A stretch of DNA of 64,000 bases. Source: Chthonomonas sp. (GTDB taxonomy: Bacteria; Armatimonadota; Chthonomonadetes; Chthonomonadales; Chthonomonadaceae). The stretch lies in NCBI RefSeq assembly GCF_035294505.1, contig NZ_DATGKU010000174.1, positions 73,610 to 137,609 of the forward strand, written 5' to 3'. The translations under genes and the position numbers were made by a program. Positions within the stretch are counted from its first letter, which is position 1. Each line of letters starts with the position of its first letter. Of this stretch, positions 16,238 through 62,828 are shown piece after piece. The notes below the pieces were generated by a model, which worked only from the letters and a program-made list of their open reading frames with translations, was not told the origin of the DNA and ran no database searches.

Positions 16238-18440
16238 GGTTACCTCATCGGCAACCCCAGAAGAACGTCCAAGTATCCTGCTCTATCTCGCGGGACTGGC
16301 CGTTACGCTTAGCGGACTGTTTGCGGTGAACTATACCTACAACGGCCCCGGAGCGCAGCTTATCTACCTCCTCGCTATATTTGGCTACGCCTCAAGCTAC
16401 CTCCTTCGCCGCCGTGGCGTCAAAACGCTTTCCGTGGGGCTGCTTCTCCTTATGATAGGCCTCGCTTTTGTTACCTTCGTGAATCCCTCCACCCTGCCCT
16501 TCTTTAATCAAGACCAGACCGATGATCGCATCCTCGGACTGCTGCAGCTCTTTGTCTGGGCATCCATTCTACATAGTTACACCCTCCTTAACGATTCAAC
16601 CGTCCTCTTTGCCTGCGTGCCCTGCATGACTATGCTCGCCCTGGTGAGCGCTCGAAATCCCGACCCGGTCATCCACCAAGACTTTCTTGTCTTCGTGGCG
16701 GCCTCCATTTTTCTCCTGATCCATGAAAACTACCTGCGAACCACCCATACGCGCATCTTCACGGCTCCAAAACAAAAACGTTCGCTCTATTCCGGCCAGA
16801 TCGCTCTTGCGCTTGCTTGCCTGTTCTGTACGTTGGTGCTCTCTAATATCGTCGCTACACCCTTACGCGCGATGGGACAAGCCCTTTTCGGAGCTATATT
16901 CCAACAATCCCCCTACTATCCACACTATTTACCGCTTTCGAACTCACCGAGCACCCAAGTGCAGGTTAGCGAGAGAAACCATGTTCGTGTTGCTAGCGGG
17001 CCTGTCACAAGCAGCGATCAGCCGCTTTTTGAGGTAACCTCCTCACGTCCGCTCTACTGGCGCGGCGAGGTTTTAACCTTCTACGATGGTATCGGTTTTG
17101 AAGCCGCGTCTGGGTCGTCGTCCACCGAACAACTGTTCCCTGAAGAACAATCCGACACGCAACGCATTCAGCAATATGAGGATATTACAGGCCCCATGGA
17201 GTCTAGGGATACCTCGCCCCATCACTTCCTCCTTCCGCAAAGCCCGATGGAATTAGACGATACCCAAATGCAACATAGCATGGAGATCAAGCAGCAAGTG
17301 CGTATCGTAGGGGGAACGATTCTCCAAATCTATGGCGCGGGCAATATTCGTTCATTGGACGTACCCTATAACACGCTGGCCTACGATCCACTTTCAGAAA
17401 AGCTCAGCGCGCCCGACCCGCTGCACATTCAGACGACCTATACCGTCGTATCACGCGTGCCCACCGAGGATCCGTCCATTCTACGCAAGGCACCCTCTTC
17501 GATCAACGATATCCCCTCCATTATTCGCGATACCTGCCTTCAAACTGCAGTGAATGGACATGACGATCCGGCCTTACGTAAACTCGCTCAGCAGATCACA
17601 AAAGGGCTTCACAATAACTACGATAAAGCATCCGCCATTCGAGCCTATATTGCCGGCCATTGCAAATACAACCTGCATGCTCCGCCGGCACCTGCCGATC
17701 AAGATGTCGTGGACTACTTCCTCTTTAAAGCGCGCCAGGGCTATTGTGATAGCTTTGGGGCTGCTATGGTCATGTTATGCCGCTATGCAGGCATCCCAGC
17801 GCGTTTGGCCTCTGGTTTCATCACCGGCGAAGTGCGTGGCGATAATACCTACCTGGTACGTGAGAAAGATAAGCACATCTGGGCGGAGGTTTTCTTCCCC
17901 AAAATCGGCTGGGTTCCATTCGATGCCACAGAGGGTGCTCAAGAGGTGACTACCTCCCCCGGACTGATGGGCCATATCAAGGATTTTCTTTCGTGGTGCT
18001 TCGCACATGGCGCCCTGCCCGCCTTCATCTTTTGTACCGTGATCGCTCTCTTGATCTTTGTGCTGTGGAACGAACTAGGACGACGCCTTCACTGGCGCCG
18101 TCGGGCTGCACTCCTCGCACCTGAACGCTTTGCCACAAACCGCGATGTCATCGCTCAGTATCTTGAGCTTTGCAATTTCCTCGCCCGTAAAGGTCTTGCG
18201 CGCGGCTCTTCTATGACCCCCGACGAGTATCTCCACGCGCTCACACAAACACTCGGAGATGGAGACTGGAAACCCCTTATGGGAGTCATTACCCAACTCT
18301 ATACCGAGGCTCGCTACAGCCCTCGTGAACTGTCACCGGAAGAGGTTGATAGGATGAAACAGCACATCTCTCAACTACGTGCTCTGCTGCGTCACTATGC
18401 CGCCCCTGCCTCTAGGGTAACGGCACCGGCCACTACCTAA
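16206..18440 (+). CDS. Transglutaminase-like cysteine protease domain membrane protein
   Basis: 744 aa. About 6 N-terminal TM helices. TGase core GYCDSFGAAMVMLCRYAGIPARLASGF ... HIWAEVFFPKIGWVPFDATEG (Cys-His-Asp). AAAGGAG 8 nt upstream of the ATG. Overlaps the DUF58 gene by 32 nt. Confidence 0.8.
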   Translation: MNPEATPRTVEVTSSATPEERPSILLYLAGLAVTLSGLFAVNYTYNGPGAQLIYLLAIFGYASSYLLRRRGVKTLSVGLLLLMIGLAFVTFVNPSTLPFFNQDQTDDRILGLLQLFVWASILHSYTLLNDSTVLFACVPCMTMLALVSARNPDPVIHQDFLVFVAASIFLLIHENYLRTTHTRIFTAPKQKRSLYSGQIALALACLFCTLVLSNIVATPLRAMGQALFGAIFQQSPYYPHYLPLSNSPSTQVQVSERNHVRVASGPVTSSDQPLFEVTSSRPLYWRGEVLTFYDGIGFEAASGSSSTEQLFPEEQSDTQRIQQYEDITGPMESRDTSPHHFLLPQSPMELDDTQMQHSMEIKQQVRIVGGTILQIYGAGNIRSLDVPYNTLAYDPLSEKLSAPDPLHIQTTYTVVSRVPTEDPSILRKAPSSINDIPSIIRDTCLQTAVNGHDDPALRKLAQQITKGLHNNYDKASAIRAYIAGHCKYNLHAPPAPADQDVVDYFLFKARQGYCDSFGAAMVMLCRYAGIPARLASGFITGEVRGDNTYLVREKDKHIWAEVFFPKIGWVPFDATEGAQEVTTSPGLMGHIKDFLSWCFAHGALPAFIFCTVIALLIFVLWNELGRRLHWRRRAALLAPERFATNRDVIAQYLELCNFLARKGLARGSSMTPDEYLHALTQTLGDGDWKPLMGVITQLYTEARYSPRELSPEEVDRMKQHISQLRALLRHYAAPASRVTAPATT

Positions 18441-18573
18441 GCAAGTAAACTGCCGCCTAAAGACAGCAGGTAGGGGCTGGTTTACAGCAGCCCGACGAGT
18501 CTTCGGACCCGTCGCGAGCCTCTCCTTCAGGAGGGTGTCTTGAGACCGAATTATTCGCTAACTGTCAACAAAG

Positions 18574-18634
18574 AAAGGAGGGGGCGCTTCCTCTGTCGCC
18601 TAAAGACGACAGTCTCCGCGCCGAAATTTCGATG
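18574..18634 (+). promoter_or_regulatory. Conserved 5' leader element upstream of holA
   Basis: AAAGGAGGG box 58 nt upstream of the ATG, a hairpin CTGTCG-CCTAAAGA-CGACAG, then an AGTCTCC box. No SD proximal to the ATG. Alignable (~70% identity with compensatory stem changes) with the nadC leader at 60824-60883. Confidence 0.4.
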
Positions 18635-19786
18635 AGTAGAGAGATTGTTTACACCCCCAGTAGTCCGCAACTGCTCTGGCAAAAACAGTTGCTCCCGATC
18701 TATCTTTTTTGGGGATCGGCAGATAAGCTCAAAGAGGAGGCCATCGCTGCTCTCAAACACCATCTCATCGAACCGTCTTTTGCCGAGTTTGACTATGAGG
18801 TTCTCGACGCCGCTACCACCTCCCTCGATGCCATTCTCGCCGCGGCGTGCCAGGCCCCGTTCGGCTCTAGCCGGCGGCTCGTGGTCGTGCACGGAGCGGA
18901 GATTTGGCGCGAAAAGGCGCGATCCAATGAGGCCGATAGACTGGCCGAAGCTATCTCCCATCTTCCAACCTCCTGCTGCGTAGCCCTCATCGTTGCTGCA
19001 CAGAATGATGAGGACAAACGCAAGACAGTCCTTACCCCACGCCTCGATAAAGCTATTGGAGAAAAAGGAGCTTTGGTCTCCTGTCGATCGCCTTCCGCTG
19101 ATACCTTAAAAAAGTGGCTCCTACAAAAAGCTCAGAAGGAAAACAAAACCTTTGAGCCGGCAGCGCTTGAACTTCTACTCACAACCACCGGTCACGAGCT
19201 GCACACGCTTGAGCAGGAGTTGGCCAAGTTGCTCGCCTATAGCGGCACACGCCCCGTGATCACCAAAGCCGACGTACAAACGCTTGCCACCGATACCCCA
19301 GAAGATGTTATCTTCGCTGCGGTTGATGCCGTCGTTAAGCGTCAAGCGGAACTGGCGCTCCAACTCCTCGCCGAACTTCATCGTTATGAGCCGAAACCGC
19401 AGGCCGTAGCCGCCAAGTTTCTTGCGCTGCTTGCCCGCCAGTTCCGCTTGTTATGGCAGGCCAAGCTGTTGATTGAGCTGGGCATTAGCCCCAACCAAGT
19501 TTCCCATCTGCCGGAGGATATCGCTGCAGAATTGCCTAAAGAGGCTTCCATCACCGGGATGCACTGGAAAGCACGAGAGCTATTCGATCTGGCGAAACAG
19601 TGGTCGTGGCACGACTTAGCCGCCGCCATGGATCAGCTCTTAGAATGCGACACCGCCAATAAAGGTGCGGCAGTCCTCGATATCGGGCTTTTCGGAGCCG
19701 ACCCGGCCCGTAACCTTCAAATTCTCGTTCTATCCCTCGCGTCCACACCCCTATCAACAGCAAACCCCACTATCTCTAAGAGATAG
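18632..19786 (+). CDS. holA: DNA polymerase III subunit delta
   Basis: 384 aa. N-terminal LLPIYLFWGSADKLKEEAIAAL matches the HolA YLLxGxE...L pattern. Length and helical C-terminus are consistent. Confidence 0.8.
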   Translation: MSREIVYTPSSPQLLWQKQLLPIYLFWGSADKLKEEAIAALKHHLIEPSFAEFDYEVLDAATTSLDAILAAACQAPFGSSRRLVVVHGAEIWREKARSNEADRLAEAISHLPTSCCVALIVAAQNDEDKRKTVLTPRLDKAIGEKGALVSCRSPSADTLKKWLLQKAQKENKTFEPAALELLLTTTGHELHTLEQELAKLLAYSGTRPVITKADVQTLATDTPEDVIFAAVDAVVKRQAELALQLLAELHRYEPKPQAVAAKFLALLARQFRLLWQAKLLIELGISPNQVSHLPEDIAAELPKEASITGMHWKARELFDLAKQWSWHDLAAAMDQLLECDTANKGAAVLDIGLFGADPARNLQILVLSLASTPLSTANPTISKR

Positions 19787-43979: not shown

Positions 43980-44136
43980 TTAATACCCTTGCTGACTGTA
44001 CTAAGCAGTATACCACCCCCAGTTCGATGGAATGTGGAGGTCACCGGAGAGGAGGCCTGCGTCCTCCATCCGCCTAAAGATAGGAAGGAGAATAGGTATA
44101 ATAACCCTTGAAGCTAGCCTATGGGAAGATCGCCCT

Positions 44137-55834: not shown

Positions 55835-55958
55835 TCAAAGAAGGCACAAAACAACTATCGTTTAAAACAGGGTAAACTGAAAGGAGGGAACAGCAGTAAG
55901 TCGAGGAGGACTCTTGCTGCACCGGCGTACCGGCCTTTTACTGTGAGCAAGAGAGTCT

Positions 55959-56615
55959 ATGCATATTGCTAATTTTGCCTATCCGTCAGCACGAGCGCTC
56001 CTTTTGGGGGCTTGTGTGCTGGCGGTTTTGCATGGGTTTTTGCCCTCCCATTGGCTTACGTTCGTAGCTGTGGGGCGTCTGCGACGCTGGTCGGGACGCC
56101 GCACGCTTGGCGTTGCCGCAGCAACAGGGTTTGCACATCTCTTTGCAACCGTTATTCTTGGCTTCTTGCTCGCGCTCTCGGGTAAACACGTTTGGGCCTA
56201 TCTCCACCTGCCGCCCCAGCTGGAGAAAACGGCCATCTCGATTGTCACCATCGGCTTAGGAGTCGTCTTCGTGCTCCAAACGCTTGTGCCTCATAAGGGG
56301 CATCATCATGAAACGGTTCCGACGACCTCTTCAGGAGATAGTGCCATCATCGCGACGCTCTTTATGGGCATGGTGCTCTCCCCATGCCTCGATCTTCTCC
56401 CGCTCTACGTCGTCGGTGCCAATTACTCCATAGCCGTTTTGAGCCTCATGAGCCTGCTTTTCGTAGGAATCACCGTGGGAGTGATGCTCACCCTTATCTG
56501 GCTTACCCTGCAAGGAATGAAACGCCTTAACCTGGAACCGCTCGAACACTACGAGGGTCTCCTCATCGGATGTGTGCTCATTCTATTAGGAATTACGGTC
56601 AACTTTCTGAAGTAA
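55959..56615 (+). CDS. Polytopic membrane protein with His-rich loop, putative metal-ion transporter
   Basis: About 6 TM helices. PHKGHHHETVP loop. Immediately upstream of a CDF transporter. Family not confidently identified. Confidence 0.35.
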   Translation: MHIANFAYPSARALLLGACVLAVLHGFLPSHWLTFVAVGRLRRWSGRRTLGVAAATGFAHLFATVILGFLLALSGKHVWAYLHLPPQLEKTAISIVTIGLGVVFVLQTLVPHKGHHHETVPTTSSGDSAIIATLFMGMVLSPCLDLLPLYVVGANYSIAVLSLMSLLFVGITVGVMLTLIWLTLQGMKRLNLEPLEHYEGLLIGCVLILLGITVNFLK

Positions 56616-59878: not shown

Positions 59879-60675
59879 TCATCGAAACCCAGGACGATGT
59901 CGTGCGCCTCTCCGGCTCGCTACGGCAAAACCAGTGGCCGACCATTCGCGCCGTGGCCGGCATGTTGCTCCACGATCATCCCGAAGGCATCATCATAGAT
60001 TGCGCCAACCTTCAGGATATTTCCGAGGAGGGCGCCAAAACCTTTCTCGAAGCCATGCGCGATATCGAGGCTGCCGGCAAACGCATTATTGTGGCGAACC
60101 TACCGGAACATGTTCTTAATGTCATCAAAAGCGTACCTGGTATCCGTTCTCAACTCCCTATCGCGAACTCGGTCGAAGAGGCACGCGCCTCGTTGCATAG
60201 ATTGCCTCAACATGCCTCTCCTACAGCCCTATCCCCAAAAGGCAGATCGCTTCTAGTGCTGCTTGTACCGGGAATTGACCTAACCCCCGGCGCGTGGCTC
60301 GCCACCCAAATGGCACGCGCACGCCGTTCAGAGGTCGCATTCGTCTTTCTCCTCGAAGTGCCCCGCGACCTGCCTCTTAATACCCCACTCGGCGAACAGG
60401 AGGATGAAGCACAACACGCCCTGGAGGTTGCCATGAACTTCGCAAAACATGCCGGTGTCACAGCCACACCCCATATTGAGCGCGTTCGCGATCTCATTGA
60501 TGGCTCCCTTGCTATGATCCGACAATATGAGGTAGAGCGTGTCGTGTTCGCCACTAGTCGGCAAAACCTCGATACCGGAAACGAAGAGATCTTCTATCGC
60601 CTTGTGGACGCGCTGCTGCACCGGGCCCCATGTGAGGTGATCGTAGGACGATTGAAAGCGGAAAGAATCGGGTAA
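59875..60675 (+). CDS. STAS (anti-sigma-factor-antagonist-like) domain fused to Usp-like domain
   Basis: ATGA overlap with the permease stop (translational coupling). N-terminal ~110 aa STAS-like (IIIDCANLQDISEEGAKTFLEAMRDIEAAGKRIIVANLPEHVLNVI). C-terminal Usp-like domain paralogous to the permease tail. Confidence 0.55.
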   Translation: MIIETQDDVVRLSGSLRQNQWPTIRAVAGMLLHDHPEGIIIDCANLQDISEEGAKTFLEAMRDIEAAGKRIIVANLPEHVLNVIKSVPGIRSQLPIANSVEEARASLHRLPQHASPTALSPKGRSLLVLLVPGIDLTPGAWLATQMARARRSEVAFVFLLEVPRDLPLNTPLGEQEDEAQHALEVAMNFAKHAGVTATPHIERVRDLIDGSLAMIRQYEVERVVFATSRQNLDTGNEEIFYRLVDALLHRAPCEVIVGRLKAERIG

Positions 60676-60823
60676 CTGTTCCCCGTACCGAGACTAGGGT
60701 TTTGTGGGTCTTCCAGACAGGAGGAGATCGGCGTTATGGAGGACTGAGGTCTGAAACTTTGTAGGCATCAGCCGTCTTGAGGATGCAGCTTTCGTGGGTA
60801 TATATATAGCAGGTTTTTCTGAG

Positions 60824-60883
60824 AAAGGAGGGTGGCATTCGTCTCCCGCCTAAACGTGGGAGTCTCCTGCCGCAATCTTTATG
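60824..60883 (+). promoter_or_regulatory. Conserved 5' leader element upstream of nadC (homologous to holA leader)
   Basis: AAAGGAGGG box 57 nt upstream of the ATG, a hairpin CTCCC-GCCTAAACGT-GGGAG, then an AGTCTCC box. A TATATAT -10-like box at 60800-60808. Confidence 0.4.
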
Positions 60884-61774
60884 AACGCCTTCTCTTCTAA
60901 ATCCAAAGAGACCAGCCCTTACGCTCCCTTCAGAGATTTCCCCGGTCTGGCCTCCATCGTGCAACAGGCTCTTAGGGAAGATATCGGCACGGGAGATATC
61001 ACCACGCAACTCGTGATCCCCTCAACCGCCCGTGCAAAGGCCAATATCACTACACGAGTTGCAGGGGTCATCGCCGGCCTACCGGTTGTTCAAGAAGTCT
61101 ATCGTCAACTCGACCCCAGCGTTCAGGTGGAGTTGATCGTGCAGGACGGCGACTCGGTGGAGGCGAACACGCCGCTTGCCATCCTCTCCGGGTGTGCCCA
61201 AAGCCTCCTCACCGGGGAGCGAGTGGCTCTTAATTTCGTACAACGTCTTAGCGGCATCGCCACGCTCACCGCAAAGTTTGTGGCAGCCGCCCGCCGAGAA
61301 GGTCTACGAATTGTAGACACACGCAAGACAACGCCCGGACTTCGCCTCTTAGAAAAGTATGCGGTGCGAGTCGGTGGGGGTCACAACCATCGCTTTGGCC
61401 TCTATGATGCCGTCTTAATTAAAGATAACCATATCGCCGCTTGCGGTTCCATCACAGAAGCGGTTCGTGCCGCCCTTACCGGTGCACCGCATGTTATGAG
61501 CGTCACCGTAGAATGCGACACGCTCGAACAAGTGCAAGAAGCGCTCGATGCTGGCGCCGATGTCATTCTTCTCGATAACATGTCCCCCGAGCAGCTGCGT
61601 GCAGCGGTTGCATTGGTGAACGGCCAAGCCATGGTCGAGGCCAGCGGAGGAATTACCTTAGAGACGATCGCCGAGGTGGCTGCTACCGGTGTGGACATCA
61701 TCTCTATCGGCGCTCTCACCCATTCCGCACCCGCCCTCGACATCGGTATGGATTTCGTCATGACAAGTCTCTGA
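60881..61774 (+). CDS. nadC: Nicotinate-nucleotide pyrophosphorylase (quinolinate phosphoribosyltransferase, carboxylating)
   Basis: N-terminal ALREDIGTGDITT, central RKTTPGLRLLEKYAVRVGGGHNHRFGL and C-terminal LLDNMSPEQL...ASGGITLETI are NadC hallmarks. Confidence 0.85.
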   Translation: MNAFSSKSKETSPYAPFRDFPGLASIVQQALREDIGTGDITTQLVIPSTARAKANITTRVAGVIAGLPVVQEVYRQLDPSVQVELIVQDGDSVEANTPLAILSGCAQSLLTGERVALNFVQRLSGIATLTAKFVAAARREGLRIVDTRKTTPGLRLLEKYAVRVGGGHNHRFGLYDAVLIKDNHIAACGSITEAVRAALTGAPHVMSVTVECDTLEQVQEALDAGADVILLDNMSPEQLRAAVALVNGQAMVEASGGITLETIAEVAATGVDIISIGALTHSAPALDIGMDFVMTSL

Positions 61775-61951
61775 CGCTCCCCGGCAGAAAAGCAACGGTA
61801 CTCGGCTCTCCGACCCGCCCAACCGCAAAGCCTCCCCGCTGCTTCATACACCCACACCCCTCCCGACTGGGAACGGTGTCGTTAATAGAGTATACTGGTC
61901 TACGCGGATGGTCACCCTCTCCGCTGCGGACTTGAGGCACAGTGTTTTCAG

Positions 61952-61976
61952 CCCCGCCTCACGAAGCGGGGGTTTT
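61952..61976 (+). terminator. Rho-independent terminator / attenuator-like hairpin between nadC and birA
   Basis: CCCCGC-CTCACGAA-GCGGGG followed by GTTTT. Lies only about 20 nt upstream of the birA ATG and downstream of a TATACT box. Confidence 0.5.
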
Positions 61977-61994
61977 CCGCATCGGGCTATAATC

Positions 61995-62828
61995 ATGGCA
62001 CTCTACCATCTTTCAAGCGTTCCCTCCACGATGGACGTGGCACGCGATCTACTTCATTCCGATCCACTTGCCTTACAGCGCTGGGACGGCGTTCTCGCCG
62101 ACGAACAGACCCAAGGACGCGGCCAACGTGGCCGCAGCTGGTTTGCCCGTGCTGGCGAGAGCCTCTGTGCCACCTTCTTCTATCCCCAAACGTTCCCAAT
62201 GCCCTCTCATCCTCATGACGAGCCTCTACAAAGAGTTGCCATGCTCTCTATATTGGCCGGGGTTGCCGTCGCCGAGTCGATCCATCGTGCCCTCCTCAAG
62301 GCGCTGGGCCTCCCGATATCCAACCGGCCGACCCCGTCTAAGCCCGATATCGGCCTCAAATGGCCCAACGATCTCCTTCTCAACCACAGAAAAACGGGGG
62401 GTATCTTGATAGAACTGGCCCAACTGCCGACAGGAGAACACATCCCTCTTATCGGTGTGGGCATAAACCTGTACATTAGGGAGTTTCCTCCGGAGCTGGC
62501 TTCACGCGCCACCTCCTTTCTCCGCGAAGGCATCCAAGGCATAACTCCCCTGTGGCTAGGGGCCCAGATAGCGATCTCTCTCAAGTTGTGGGCAGAACGT
62601 TATGCCGCCGGCGGCCCGGAGAGCGTCATGCGCCGATGGCAATACTACGACCGAACAAAAGGCACGGCCTATACGGTCTCTATCGGGGAACGGCAGGTTA
62701 GAGGCGTCGCCGTGGAGGTCGCTTCAAATGGCACCTTGCTGCTTCAGCTTGAGGATGGAACGCTCTTTCCCTGCTTTACTGCCAGCTCCGTGCAGCAAGA
62801 GGATAACAGACTCGATGCTACCGAGTAG
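61995..62828 (+). CDS. birA: Biotin--[acetyl-CoA-carboxylase] ligase, class I (no DNA-binding domain)
   Basis: ORF track starts at 61908. The ATG at 61995 gives MALYHLSSVPSTMDVARDLL. Catalytic GRGQRGRSWF motif (cf. GRGRRGRxW). Confidence 0.8.
   Translation: MALYHLSSVPSTMDVARDLLHSDPLALQRWDGVLADEQTQGRGQRGRSWFARAGESLCATFFYPQTFPMPSHPHDEPLQRVAMLSILAGVAVAESIHRALLKALGLPISNRPTPSKPDIGLKWPNDLLLNHRKTGGILIELAQLPTGEHIPLIGVGINLYIREFPPELASRATSFLREGIQGITPLWLGAQIAISLKLWAERYAAGGPESVMRRWQYYDRTKGTAYTVSIGERQVRGVAVEVASNGTLLLQLEDGTLFPCFTASSVQQEDNRLDATE

Follow-up and report, generated by a model that had tools for sequence, protein, structure and literature searches.

The stretch of DNA analyzed here, hereafter the window, is the whole 64,000 nt between positions 73,610 and 137,609 of the Chthonomonas sp. 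(Armatimonadota) contig NZ_DATGKU010000174.1. It carries holA (ATG at 18632) and nadC (ATG at 60881), whose products were assigned by Pfam to DNA polymerase III delta and quinolinate phosphoribosyltransferase, respectively. This study deals with the two look-alike 5′ regions preceding these genes, 18574-18631 and 60824-60880, which we now take, with high confidence, to be the left ends (LEs) of insertion sequences (ISs) of the IS200/IS605 family. The two regions matched in 42 of 59 columns, that is, 71% identity, close to the ~70% given in a first-pass annotation of the window. Both start with AAAGGAGGG and contain a hairpin around a TAAA loop, the stems of which (CTGTCGCC/GACGACAG at holA and CTCCCGCC/CGTGGGAG at nadC) differ by compensatory changes. 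AGTCTCC lies 3′ of the hairpin in both, and neither ATG has a Shine-Dalgarno (SD) sequence within 15 nt. All of these features had been listed by the annotation and were found as described. What it had overlooked was an outer helix, P1, flanking the hairpin (GGCGC/GCGCC at holA and (GT)GGCA/TGCC(GC) at nadC).

Chance similarity of two unrelated 5′ regions had to be considered. The box AAAGGAGGG, taken alone, leaves some room for it, with three sites in the window versus 0.68 expected and at least three in 5 of 100 shuffles, a weak enrichment of about 4-fold. The 11-mer CCGCCTAAAGA, with at most one mismatch, occurred seven times in the window versus 1.2 expected. The annotation had proposed searching for further instances and building a covariance model, and both were productive. 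Scanning with a three-box pattern returned two more copies, in metagenome-assembled genomes of Anaerolineae, which keep the outer helix with other sequence (CCGCA/TGCGG and GGCGGT/ACCGCC). A looser pattern, with both helices left free, returned at least 80 metagenome loci and seven loci in viral contigs. Copy statistics from here on refer to copies among the matches listed. P1 covaried in each further copy. The alignment of 61 distinct copies revealed P1 (6 bp), a 5x5 all-pyrimidine internal loop, an inner helix P2 (8 bp), and the TAAA loop; 93% of cells were paired, both-sided changes affected all six P1 pairs and three P2 pairs, and the observed covariation score was matched by none of 500 shuffles. 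A covariance model trained without the window sequences, R2, scored the holA site at 68.9 bits (E 7e-19) and the nadC site at 55.3 bits (E 1.7e-14). These scores, obtained independently, and more than 80 further copies with covarying stems indicated that the similarity is not due to chance and that the structure is under selection; the probability that we would still give to coincidence is negligible.

The position of the start codon was a further constant. ATG lay 12-14 nt past the core in 74 of 82 copies, and the next base was A in 79 of 82. Many of the open reading frames (ORFs) beginning at these ATGs were only 2-30 codons long. Within groups of copies from one metagenome, sequences were identical upstream of and through the motif and diverged directly after ...ATGA. 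We also looked at whether the region might be an upstream ORF or an N-terminal extension with a non-canonical start; at nadC, an ATT-initiated 15-codon frame ends at a TGA overlapping the ATG, and the equivalent holA frame is in-frame with the ATG. This was rejected, since the ATG stands 12, 13, or 14 nt past the core depending on the copy, which puts the TAA of the loop in different frames. Two loci, L012 and L071, have the motif next to GTGA or TTGA instead of ATGA, in both cases an alternative start codon followed by A, so that the target, read on the other strand, may be conserved only as TCA(N). Other exceptions to the ATGA junction were L010 (ATGG) and L081 (AGGA).

The annotation had interpreted the two regions as a leader or riboswitch family of holA and nadC. 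Such a dedicated cis-regulatory leader RNA, of the riboswitch, thermometer, or protein-binding type, would sequester or present the distant SD. The structure is indeed real, conserved, and covarying, and its conserved loops could be a binding site. Rfam 15 had no match in the window at the gathering threshold, and only chance-level matches (E > 4) fell on the leader and on the corresponding region of locus L058, which bears out the earlier statement that no described family fits. Covariation, as expected for a leader RNA, was thus observed, but a DNA hairpin explains it equally well. Moreover, the genes downstream of the copies are unrelated to one another (lipoproteins, methyltransferases, acyl carrier protein, phage genes, and short non-genes), and identical copies part exactly at the ATGA junction, two points against a leader RNA. 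A further argument came from the comparison of orthologous loci.

Indeed, the sites before orthologous holA and nadC genes were empty in C. calidirosea T49 and other close relatives. HolA of the window shares 81% identity with its T49 counterpart and 88% with the HolA of a metagenomic relative, and both of these have 4 nt between the stop of a transglutaminase-like gene and the holA ATG. The empty site reads ...CCTGAGCAG|ATGAATAGAGAG in L084/L085 and ...CACGTAAGAAA|ATGGGTAGAGAA in T49, versus ...CCTAAGCAA|[187 bp]|ATGAGTAGAGAG in the window. By blastn, T49 and the window are collinear at holA; between the aligned blocks, T49 has no extra base and the window has 187. No element preceded the orthologous holA in T49, L084, L085, or L086. 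In the window, the extra DNA sits between the transglutaminase gene, whose stop at 18438-18440 is followed by the 4-nt spacer GCAA, and the holA ATG, with the top strand of the transposon on the minus strand of the window. Its parts are as follows.

18445-18631, minus strand: complete 187-bp non-autonomous IS200/IS605-type element, resembling palindrome-associated transposable elements (PATEs) and miniature inverted-repeat transposable elements (MITEs), delimited by the empty-site comparison
18445-18469, minus strand: right end (RE), from a P2-only covariance-model match; the plus strand reads GTAAA and then CTGCCGCC-TAAA-GACAGCAG (18450-18469)
18574-18582, plus strand: AAAGGAGGG, an SD-like purine tract facing outward to holA and abutting the 5′ base of P1
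18583-18622, no strand assigned: imperfect palindrome of the LE, from the 61-copy covariation; the minimum free energy fold gives P1 and P2
18583-18587 with 18618-18622: P1 of the holA LE, GGCGC with GCGCC
18588-18592 and 18613-18617: all-pyrimidine internal loop of the holA LE, TTCCT and TCTCC
18593-18600 with 18605-18612: P2 of the holA LE, with the TAAA loop at 18601-18604
18623-18635, plus strand: 9-nt linker GAAATTTCG, which closes the element, then host ATGA, that is, the holA start codon plus A

The covariance models matched 18450-18469 through P2 only (model positions 30-49), at 16.5 bits and E values of 0.036 and 0.049. The annotation had noticed a recurrence of CCGCCTAAAGA at 18462 and taken it for a second hairpin upstream of holA. 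The hairpin is real, but the recurrence lies at 18453-18463 and belongs to the RE hairpin of the holA element. This same hairpin, read on the minus strand, was the sole "terminator" returned by a terminator scan around the two 5′ regions, and a sigma-70 promoter scan around both returned no promoter.

The same situation was found at nadC. NadC is 88% identical to that of T49, and a neighboring protein matches one from a metagenome-assembled genome of Chthonomonas sp. at 100%; together with HolA, these place the window in Chthonomonas and not in Chloroflexota, a host that the two Anaerolineae copies could have suggested. In T49 and L090 the element is absent, and the STAS-domain gene ends in a TGA that overlaps the ATG of nadC (...AAGATCCTATGAACGCC). 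In the window and in L089, whose NadC is 96% identical, an insert stands exactly 5′ of ATGA. The features of the window insert are as follows.

60672-60880, minus strand: second insertion, ~209 bp, from the STAS-domain gene to the nadC ATG, its left boundary being uncertain by about 2 nt
60824-60884, plus strand: LE of the nadC insertion, with AAAGGAGGG at 60824-60832; 55.3 bits with model R2
60832-60837 with 60868-60873: P1 of the nadC LE; internal loop TTCGT and TCTCC
60843-60850 with 60855-60862: P2 of the nadC LE, with the TAAA loop at 60851-60854
60881-60884: host ATGA, preceded by the linker AATCTTT

The comparison of empty and filled sites showed that both insertions have precise junctions and no target duplication. 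The nadC and holA elements share 71% identity in the LE and only about 52% elsewhere, the remainder of the nadC insert being unrelated to the holA element. We also checked whether the same 187-bp and ~209-bp segments were present in all Chthonomonas without any empty site, and they were not; likewise, model R2 found no match on ~42 kb of T49 sequence syntenic with the window. The orthologous nadC LE of L089 scored 42.7 bits and had already drifted in the boxes thought to be conserved (GTCTAAA, GGTCTCC), a further point against a leader RNA. Over this stretch (L089 1961-2034 versus window 60814-60887), three stem positions had changed in addition to the loop and boxes; all three changes keep a Watson-Crick or G.U pair on the mRNA-sense strand and would give an A.C mismatch on the top strand, a sample too small to carry weight (p = 0.125). 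Because of the empty sites, the leader-RNA interpretation is largely refuted, and we now regard it as very improbable.

Genes lying next to the copies indicated what had been inserted. In many copies, an ORF with a TnpB-like N-terminus starts 30-130 nt upstream on the opposite strand. Pfam assigned OrfB_IS605 (PF01385) and the Cas12f1-like TNB domain (PF07282) to all seven such divergent ORFs that were submitted, and Y1_Tnp, the IS200 transposase (PF01797), to both of two other divergent ORFs. A local search with hidden Markov models found TnpB and/or TnpA beside 43 of the 68 copies having enough flanking DNA to judge, an association that the leader-RNA interpretation does not account for; in two of the 43, tnpA was followed by tnpB. 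When copies were aligned on the tnpB-sense strand, homology started exactly at TCAT| and stopped at ...GGTTTAC|, and the flanks differed beyond these points. A full-length copy contains, in this order, the hairpin GGAGA-CTGCCACC-TTTA-GGCGACAG-AGGAA, the CCTCCTTT tract, a promoter with TTGACA-N17-TATACT, the tnpB gene, and another hairpin like the first. This second hairpin, that of the RE, reads CTGTCTGC-TTTA-GCTGACAG-TGGTTTAC|, the point past which the copies differ. Within a few nucleotides of the hairpin, the RE terminates in a motif resembling a transposon/target-adjacent motif (TAM), namely TTTAC, TTGAT, or TTGAC. On the top strand, the RE of the holA element reads CTGCTGTC-TTTA-GGCGGCAG-TTTAC|, an architecture that matches the REs of the full-length copies. 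L039 carries a longer relative of the holA element with a homologous RE (hairpin at 21.8 bits) and LE, lying between other flanks and also placed at ATGAGT.

Full-length copies such as L022, L023, and L072 have a near-consensus TTGACA-N17-TATACT before tnpB, with the ATG 6 nt past the −10 box, a spacing that implies a leaderless tnpB mRNA. The GTCAA box found upstream of many of the "leaders" is the reverse complement of the −35 element of this promoter. Ends of this type, sometimes several of them, were also seen in very large viral contigs as classed by IMG/VR, namely L035/L095 (259,732 bp) and L059/L081/L098/L100 (140,188 bp). In this AT-rich group, ~10 near-identical LE cassettes each stand before a different small gene, with a promoter pointing outward (TTGACA-N17-TATGTT) close upstream of the SD-like tract.

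Collectively, these data argue strongly that the holA and nadC "leaders" are LEs of insertion sequences of the IS200/IS605 family that are non-autonomous, being palindrome-associated or MITE-like derivatives, and we have little doubt about this. At the sequence level, the element has each of the IS200/IS605 and PATE hallmarks that we tested. Similar subterminal hairpins at both ends, without terminal inverted repeats, were observed in the holA element and in full-length copies. A fixed target lies next to the LE and is not duplicated. Y1 TnpA and/or TnpB accompany other copies. Mobility is apparent from multi-copy families within single metagenomes and from presence or absence among relatives. 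Since the element is a transposon end, the covariation of the hairpin reflects a DNA hairpin recognized by the transposase.

Four observations weigh against this identification. Neither the covariance model nor BLAST nor DNA folding found an RE hairpin in the nadC element, which may be one-ended, rearranged, or decayed. The 64-kb window contains neither tnpA nor tnpB, so that the mobilizing transposase was not seen; ten ORFs of 261-556 aa, including every TnpB-sized candidate (338-382 aa), all belong to other families. This absence is to be expected, since the window copies are non-autonomous. To our knowledge, the outer helix P1 does not belong to the IS608 paradigm. Lastly, a BLAST search of the LE against collections of plasmid and phage records gave no match and hence no curated IS name.

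By analogy with IS608, transposition might proceed as follows. The top strand of the element reads 5′-TCAT|linker-P1′-GGAGA-hairpin(TTTA loop)-AGAGGAA-P1-CCTCCTTT...RE hairpin-TTTAC|-3′. A TnpA of the Y1 (HuH) type, encoded elsewhere, would bind the subterminal hairpins in trans on single-stranded DNA and cut 3′ of TCAT and at the right end, in the manner of a "peel-and-paste" single-strand transposon. The excised single strand would then re-insert 3′ of another TCAT without target duplication. It is the IS608 paradigm from which we infer both the cleavage chemistry and the single-strand route. In this family, insertion of the LE is invariably 3′ of a tetra- or pentanucleotide, and a guide located 5′ of the LE hairpin foot reads this target (PMC5027513). 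The GGAGA strand just 5′ of the inner hairpin would be a candidate DNA guide recognizing TCAT; its invariance is not independent evidence, as GGAGA was fixed in the search pattern. TCAT is the reverse complement of ATGA, which accounts both for the many surviving insertions exactly 5′ of a start codon and for the LE becoming the 5′ leader of the gene that starts there. Two features that had looked like those of an RNA are likewise explained at the DNA level: the AGUCUCC box, because it is the reverse complement of the GGAGA(CT) strand beside the transposase hairpin, and the constant spacing to the ATG, because it is the distance to the TCAT target. At holA and nadC, the insertions replaced a tight translational coupling to the upstream genes.

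A possibility, which complements the IS identification and does not exclude it, is that evolution or co-option has turned the LE into a portable translation-initiation region with a hairpin-bridged ("split") SD. One idea of the annotation, a fold that brings a distant SD before the start codon, survives in this form and is compatible with the comparative data. Inserted between a gene's own upstream signals and its ATG, the LE would supply the SD AAAGGAGG on the mRNA-sense strand, and with P1 and the hairpin looped out this SD would stand about 4-12 unpaired nt from the ATG, keeping the gene translated and making insertion at a start codon tolerable. We consider this proposal, which is drawn from anatomy, worth entertaining, but somewhat more likely wrong than right.

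Several observations are consistent with it. An SD-like tract abuts the 5′ base of P1 in 44 of the 61 distinct LEs, and in four others GGAGG is found between the hairpin and the start codon, 5-8 nt before the latter; none of the 61 has both signals. The two unpaired linkers sum to 4-12 nt. The ancestral coupling has been lost, that is, the 4-nt spacer at holA and the ATGA overlap at nadC, and both ORFs are still full-length and intact. Both start codons lack any further SD over 50 nt, so that AAAGGAGGG, 50 nt upstream at the base of P1, is the only SD-like sequence left. All six P1 pairs covary, and such an outer helix is impossible at the RE, which ends about 8 nt past its hairpin. P1 wobbles on the mRNA-sense strand are G.T in 12-13 cases versus A.C in 4 (p = 0.05-0.08). 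Of 62 insertion sites, 25 open an ORF of 80 aa or more, compared with 21% when every ATGA of these loci is counted (p = 4e-4). A subfamily (L003, L059, and their relatives) also carries, a short way 5′ of the SD, a good promoter pointing outward (TTGACA-N17-TATGTT). In RNA folds, P1 and P2 are formed, with the SD largely unpaired in holA; the fold of the nadC LE has z = −3.2 and also contains both helices.

Other observations go the opposite way. The CCTCC/GGAGG tract could instead act on DNA, for instance through base pairing with GGAGA, and 13 of the 61 LEs have no clear SD. Counted over all pairs, wobbles show no strand bias (29 versus 30). Some of the SD tract is paired with the linker when the nadC LE is folded, which would sequester it instead of presenting it. 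Many insertion sites are not at real genes, and initiation could be SD-independent, on the A/U-rich linker. Putting both sides together, we propose tentatively, and with more doubt than conviction, that an IS200/IS605 lineage targeting TCAT had its LE evolve into an outward translation-initiation module made of SD, P1 looping out the transposase hairpin, and a short A/U-rich linker, with a promoter in one subfamily, so that captured genes, including holA, nadC, and many phage genes, would stay expressed. The transposon would thereby offset the cost of its own insertion.

We compared the element with known systems. Like IS608, ISDra2, and ISGst1-5 of the IS200/IS605 family, it is bounded on either side by similar subterminal hairpins, lacks terminal inverted repeats, and does not duplicate its target. 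As in that family, the LE abuts a TAM of 4-5 nt, here (N)TCAT, compared with TTCAT for ISGst5 (PMC10055086), and tnpA (Y1) and/or tnpB lie between the ends. Unlike in these ISs, an extra covarying outer helix surrounds the LE hairpin and the internal loop is 5x5 and all-pyrimidine; also different are the SD-like tract facing out of the LE, the target coinciding with ATG plus A, and the apparently leaderless tnpB. In the cited IS200/IS605 literature we found no description of P1, of an outward SD-like tract, or of a start-codon target. PATEs, which are MITE-like derivatives of IS200/IS605 elements, are alike in being gene-less, 187-340 bp long, and made of an LE and an RE (as are the holA element and L039), and presumably in being mobilized in trans; the nadC copy differs in showing an LE only. 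PATE-like copies sharing the ends of full elements are described in G. stearothermophilus, where the elements lack genes and TAMs such as TTCAT and TTTAT occur (PMC10055086), and in haloarchaea (PMC3119063). Neither an Armatimonadota host nor this type of LE was found in the cited PATE literature.

Three other comparisons deal with hairpins and RNA-level devices. IStrons, in which an IS605-family element is combined with a group I intron, lower the cost of insertion into or next to genes by a device acting on RNA (PMC4227781), as is proposed here, but they splice out of the transcript, whereas the device proposed here would be a built-in ribosome-binding site without ribozyme. Repetitive extragenic palindromic (REP) sequences and bacterial interspersed mosaic elements (BIMEs), with their REP-associated tyrosine transposase (RAYT, TnpA-REP), are also short repeated intergenic hairpins recognized by a Y1 HuH enzyme (PMC8266576); unlike the element studied here, REPs have no LE/RE pairs, no link with tnpB, and no positioning at start codons. 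The unpaired linkers of 4-12 nt also invite a comparison with phage T4.

In genes 38 and 25 of that phage, a stable hairpin probably brings a distant SD and the AUG to a functional spacing, a split SD. The case considered here differs from the T4 one in that it is a hypothesis, and in that the looped-out structure would be about 40 nt, would be a transposon end, and would precede many unrelated genes.

For annotation, a covarying "leader RNA" without Rfam match turned out to be a transposon end, and a false lead is thereby removed. Covariation alone cannot tell an RNA motif from a DNA hairpin recognized by a transposase, whereas empty sites and neighboring genes can. In two Chthonomonas genes, one of them encoding the clamp-loader delta subunit, translational coupling has been replaced by a transposon end with the ORFs intact, and this end is found ahead of dozens of unrelated genes in different phyla and also in large phage contigs. 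It also defines a TnpB family with a predicted TCAT TAM, the natural targets of which are gene starts. If the built-in SD and helix are functional, they would show how elements targeting start codons stay harmless and would offer a naturally portable ribosome-binding module. This LE type is a common sort of mobile DNA and no new regulatory RNA, its one unusual point being that a transposon end may supply a ribosome-binding site to the gene beside it.

Two other sites had been linked to the feature by the annotation, and neither was retained. The first was an exact copy of CCGCCTAAAGA at 44070-44080, ~60 nt upstream of the annotated start of a GloVer-repeat protein (44137). Neither model matches there, no clear hairpin is present, and the sole homologue with flanking DNA (L093) does not align upstream. 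About 0.03 exact copies of CCGCCTAAAGA are expected by chance in 64 kb. The 44070 copy is probably a coincidence or a decayed relic of another insertion.

The second site was a AAAGGAGGG box upstream of the gene at 55959, which encodes a 218-aa membrane protein. We rejected this candidate copy, at 55880, as the intergenic region around it is native, being equally long in T49 and 87% identical to it, and is matched by neither model. The leader of this gene (55835-55958) holds a AAAGGAGG box and a long stem CTCTTGCT...AGCAAGAG, with no match in Rfam; its identity between the window and T49, 87%, compares with ~83% for its surroundings. It may be a genuine conserved structure of its own in the 5′ untranslated region.

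A third window-specific segment, of ~215 bp, was noticed at 61775-61995, from the nadC stop to the ATG of a birA-like gene (BPL_LplA_LipB), and is unrelated to the IS end. T49 has at this place 5 nt (TCACC) between the nadC stop and ATGGCTCTATACC, and the gap is also enlarged in L089. Within the segment are a hairpin resembling a terminator (CCCCGC...GCGGGG-TTTT) and, immediately 5′ of the ATG, a TATAAT box.

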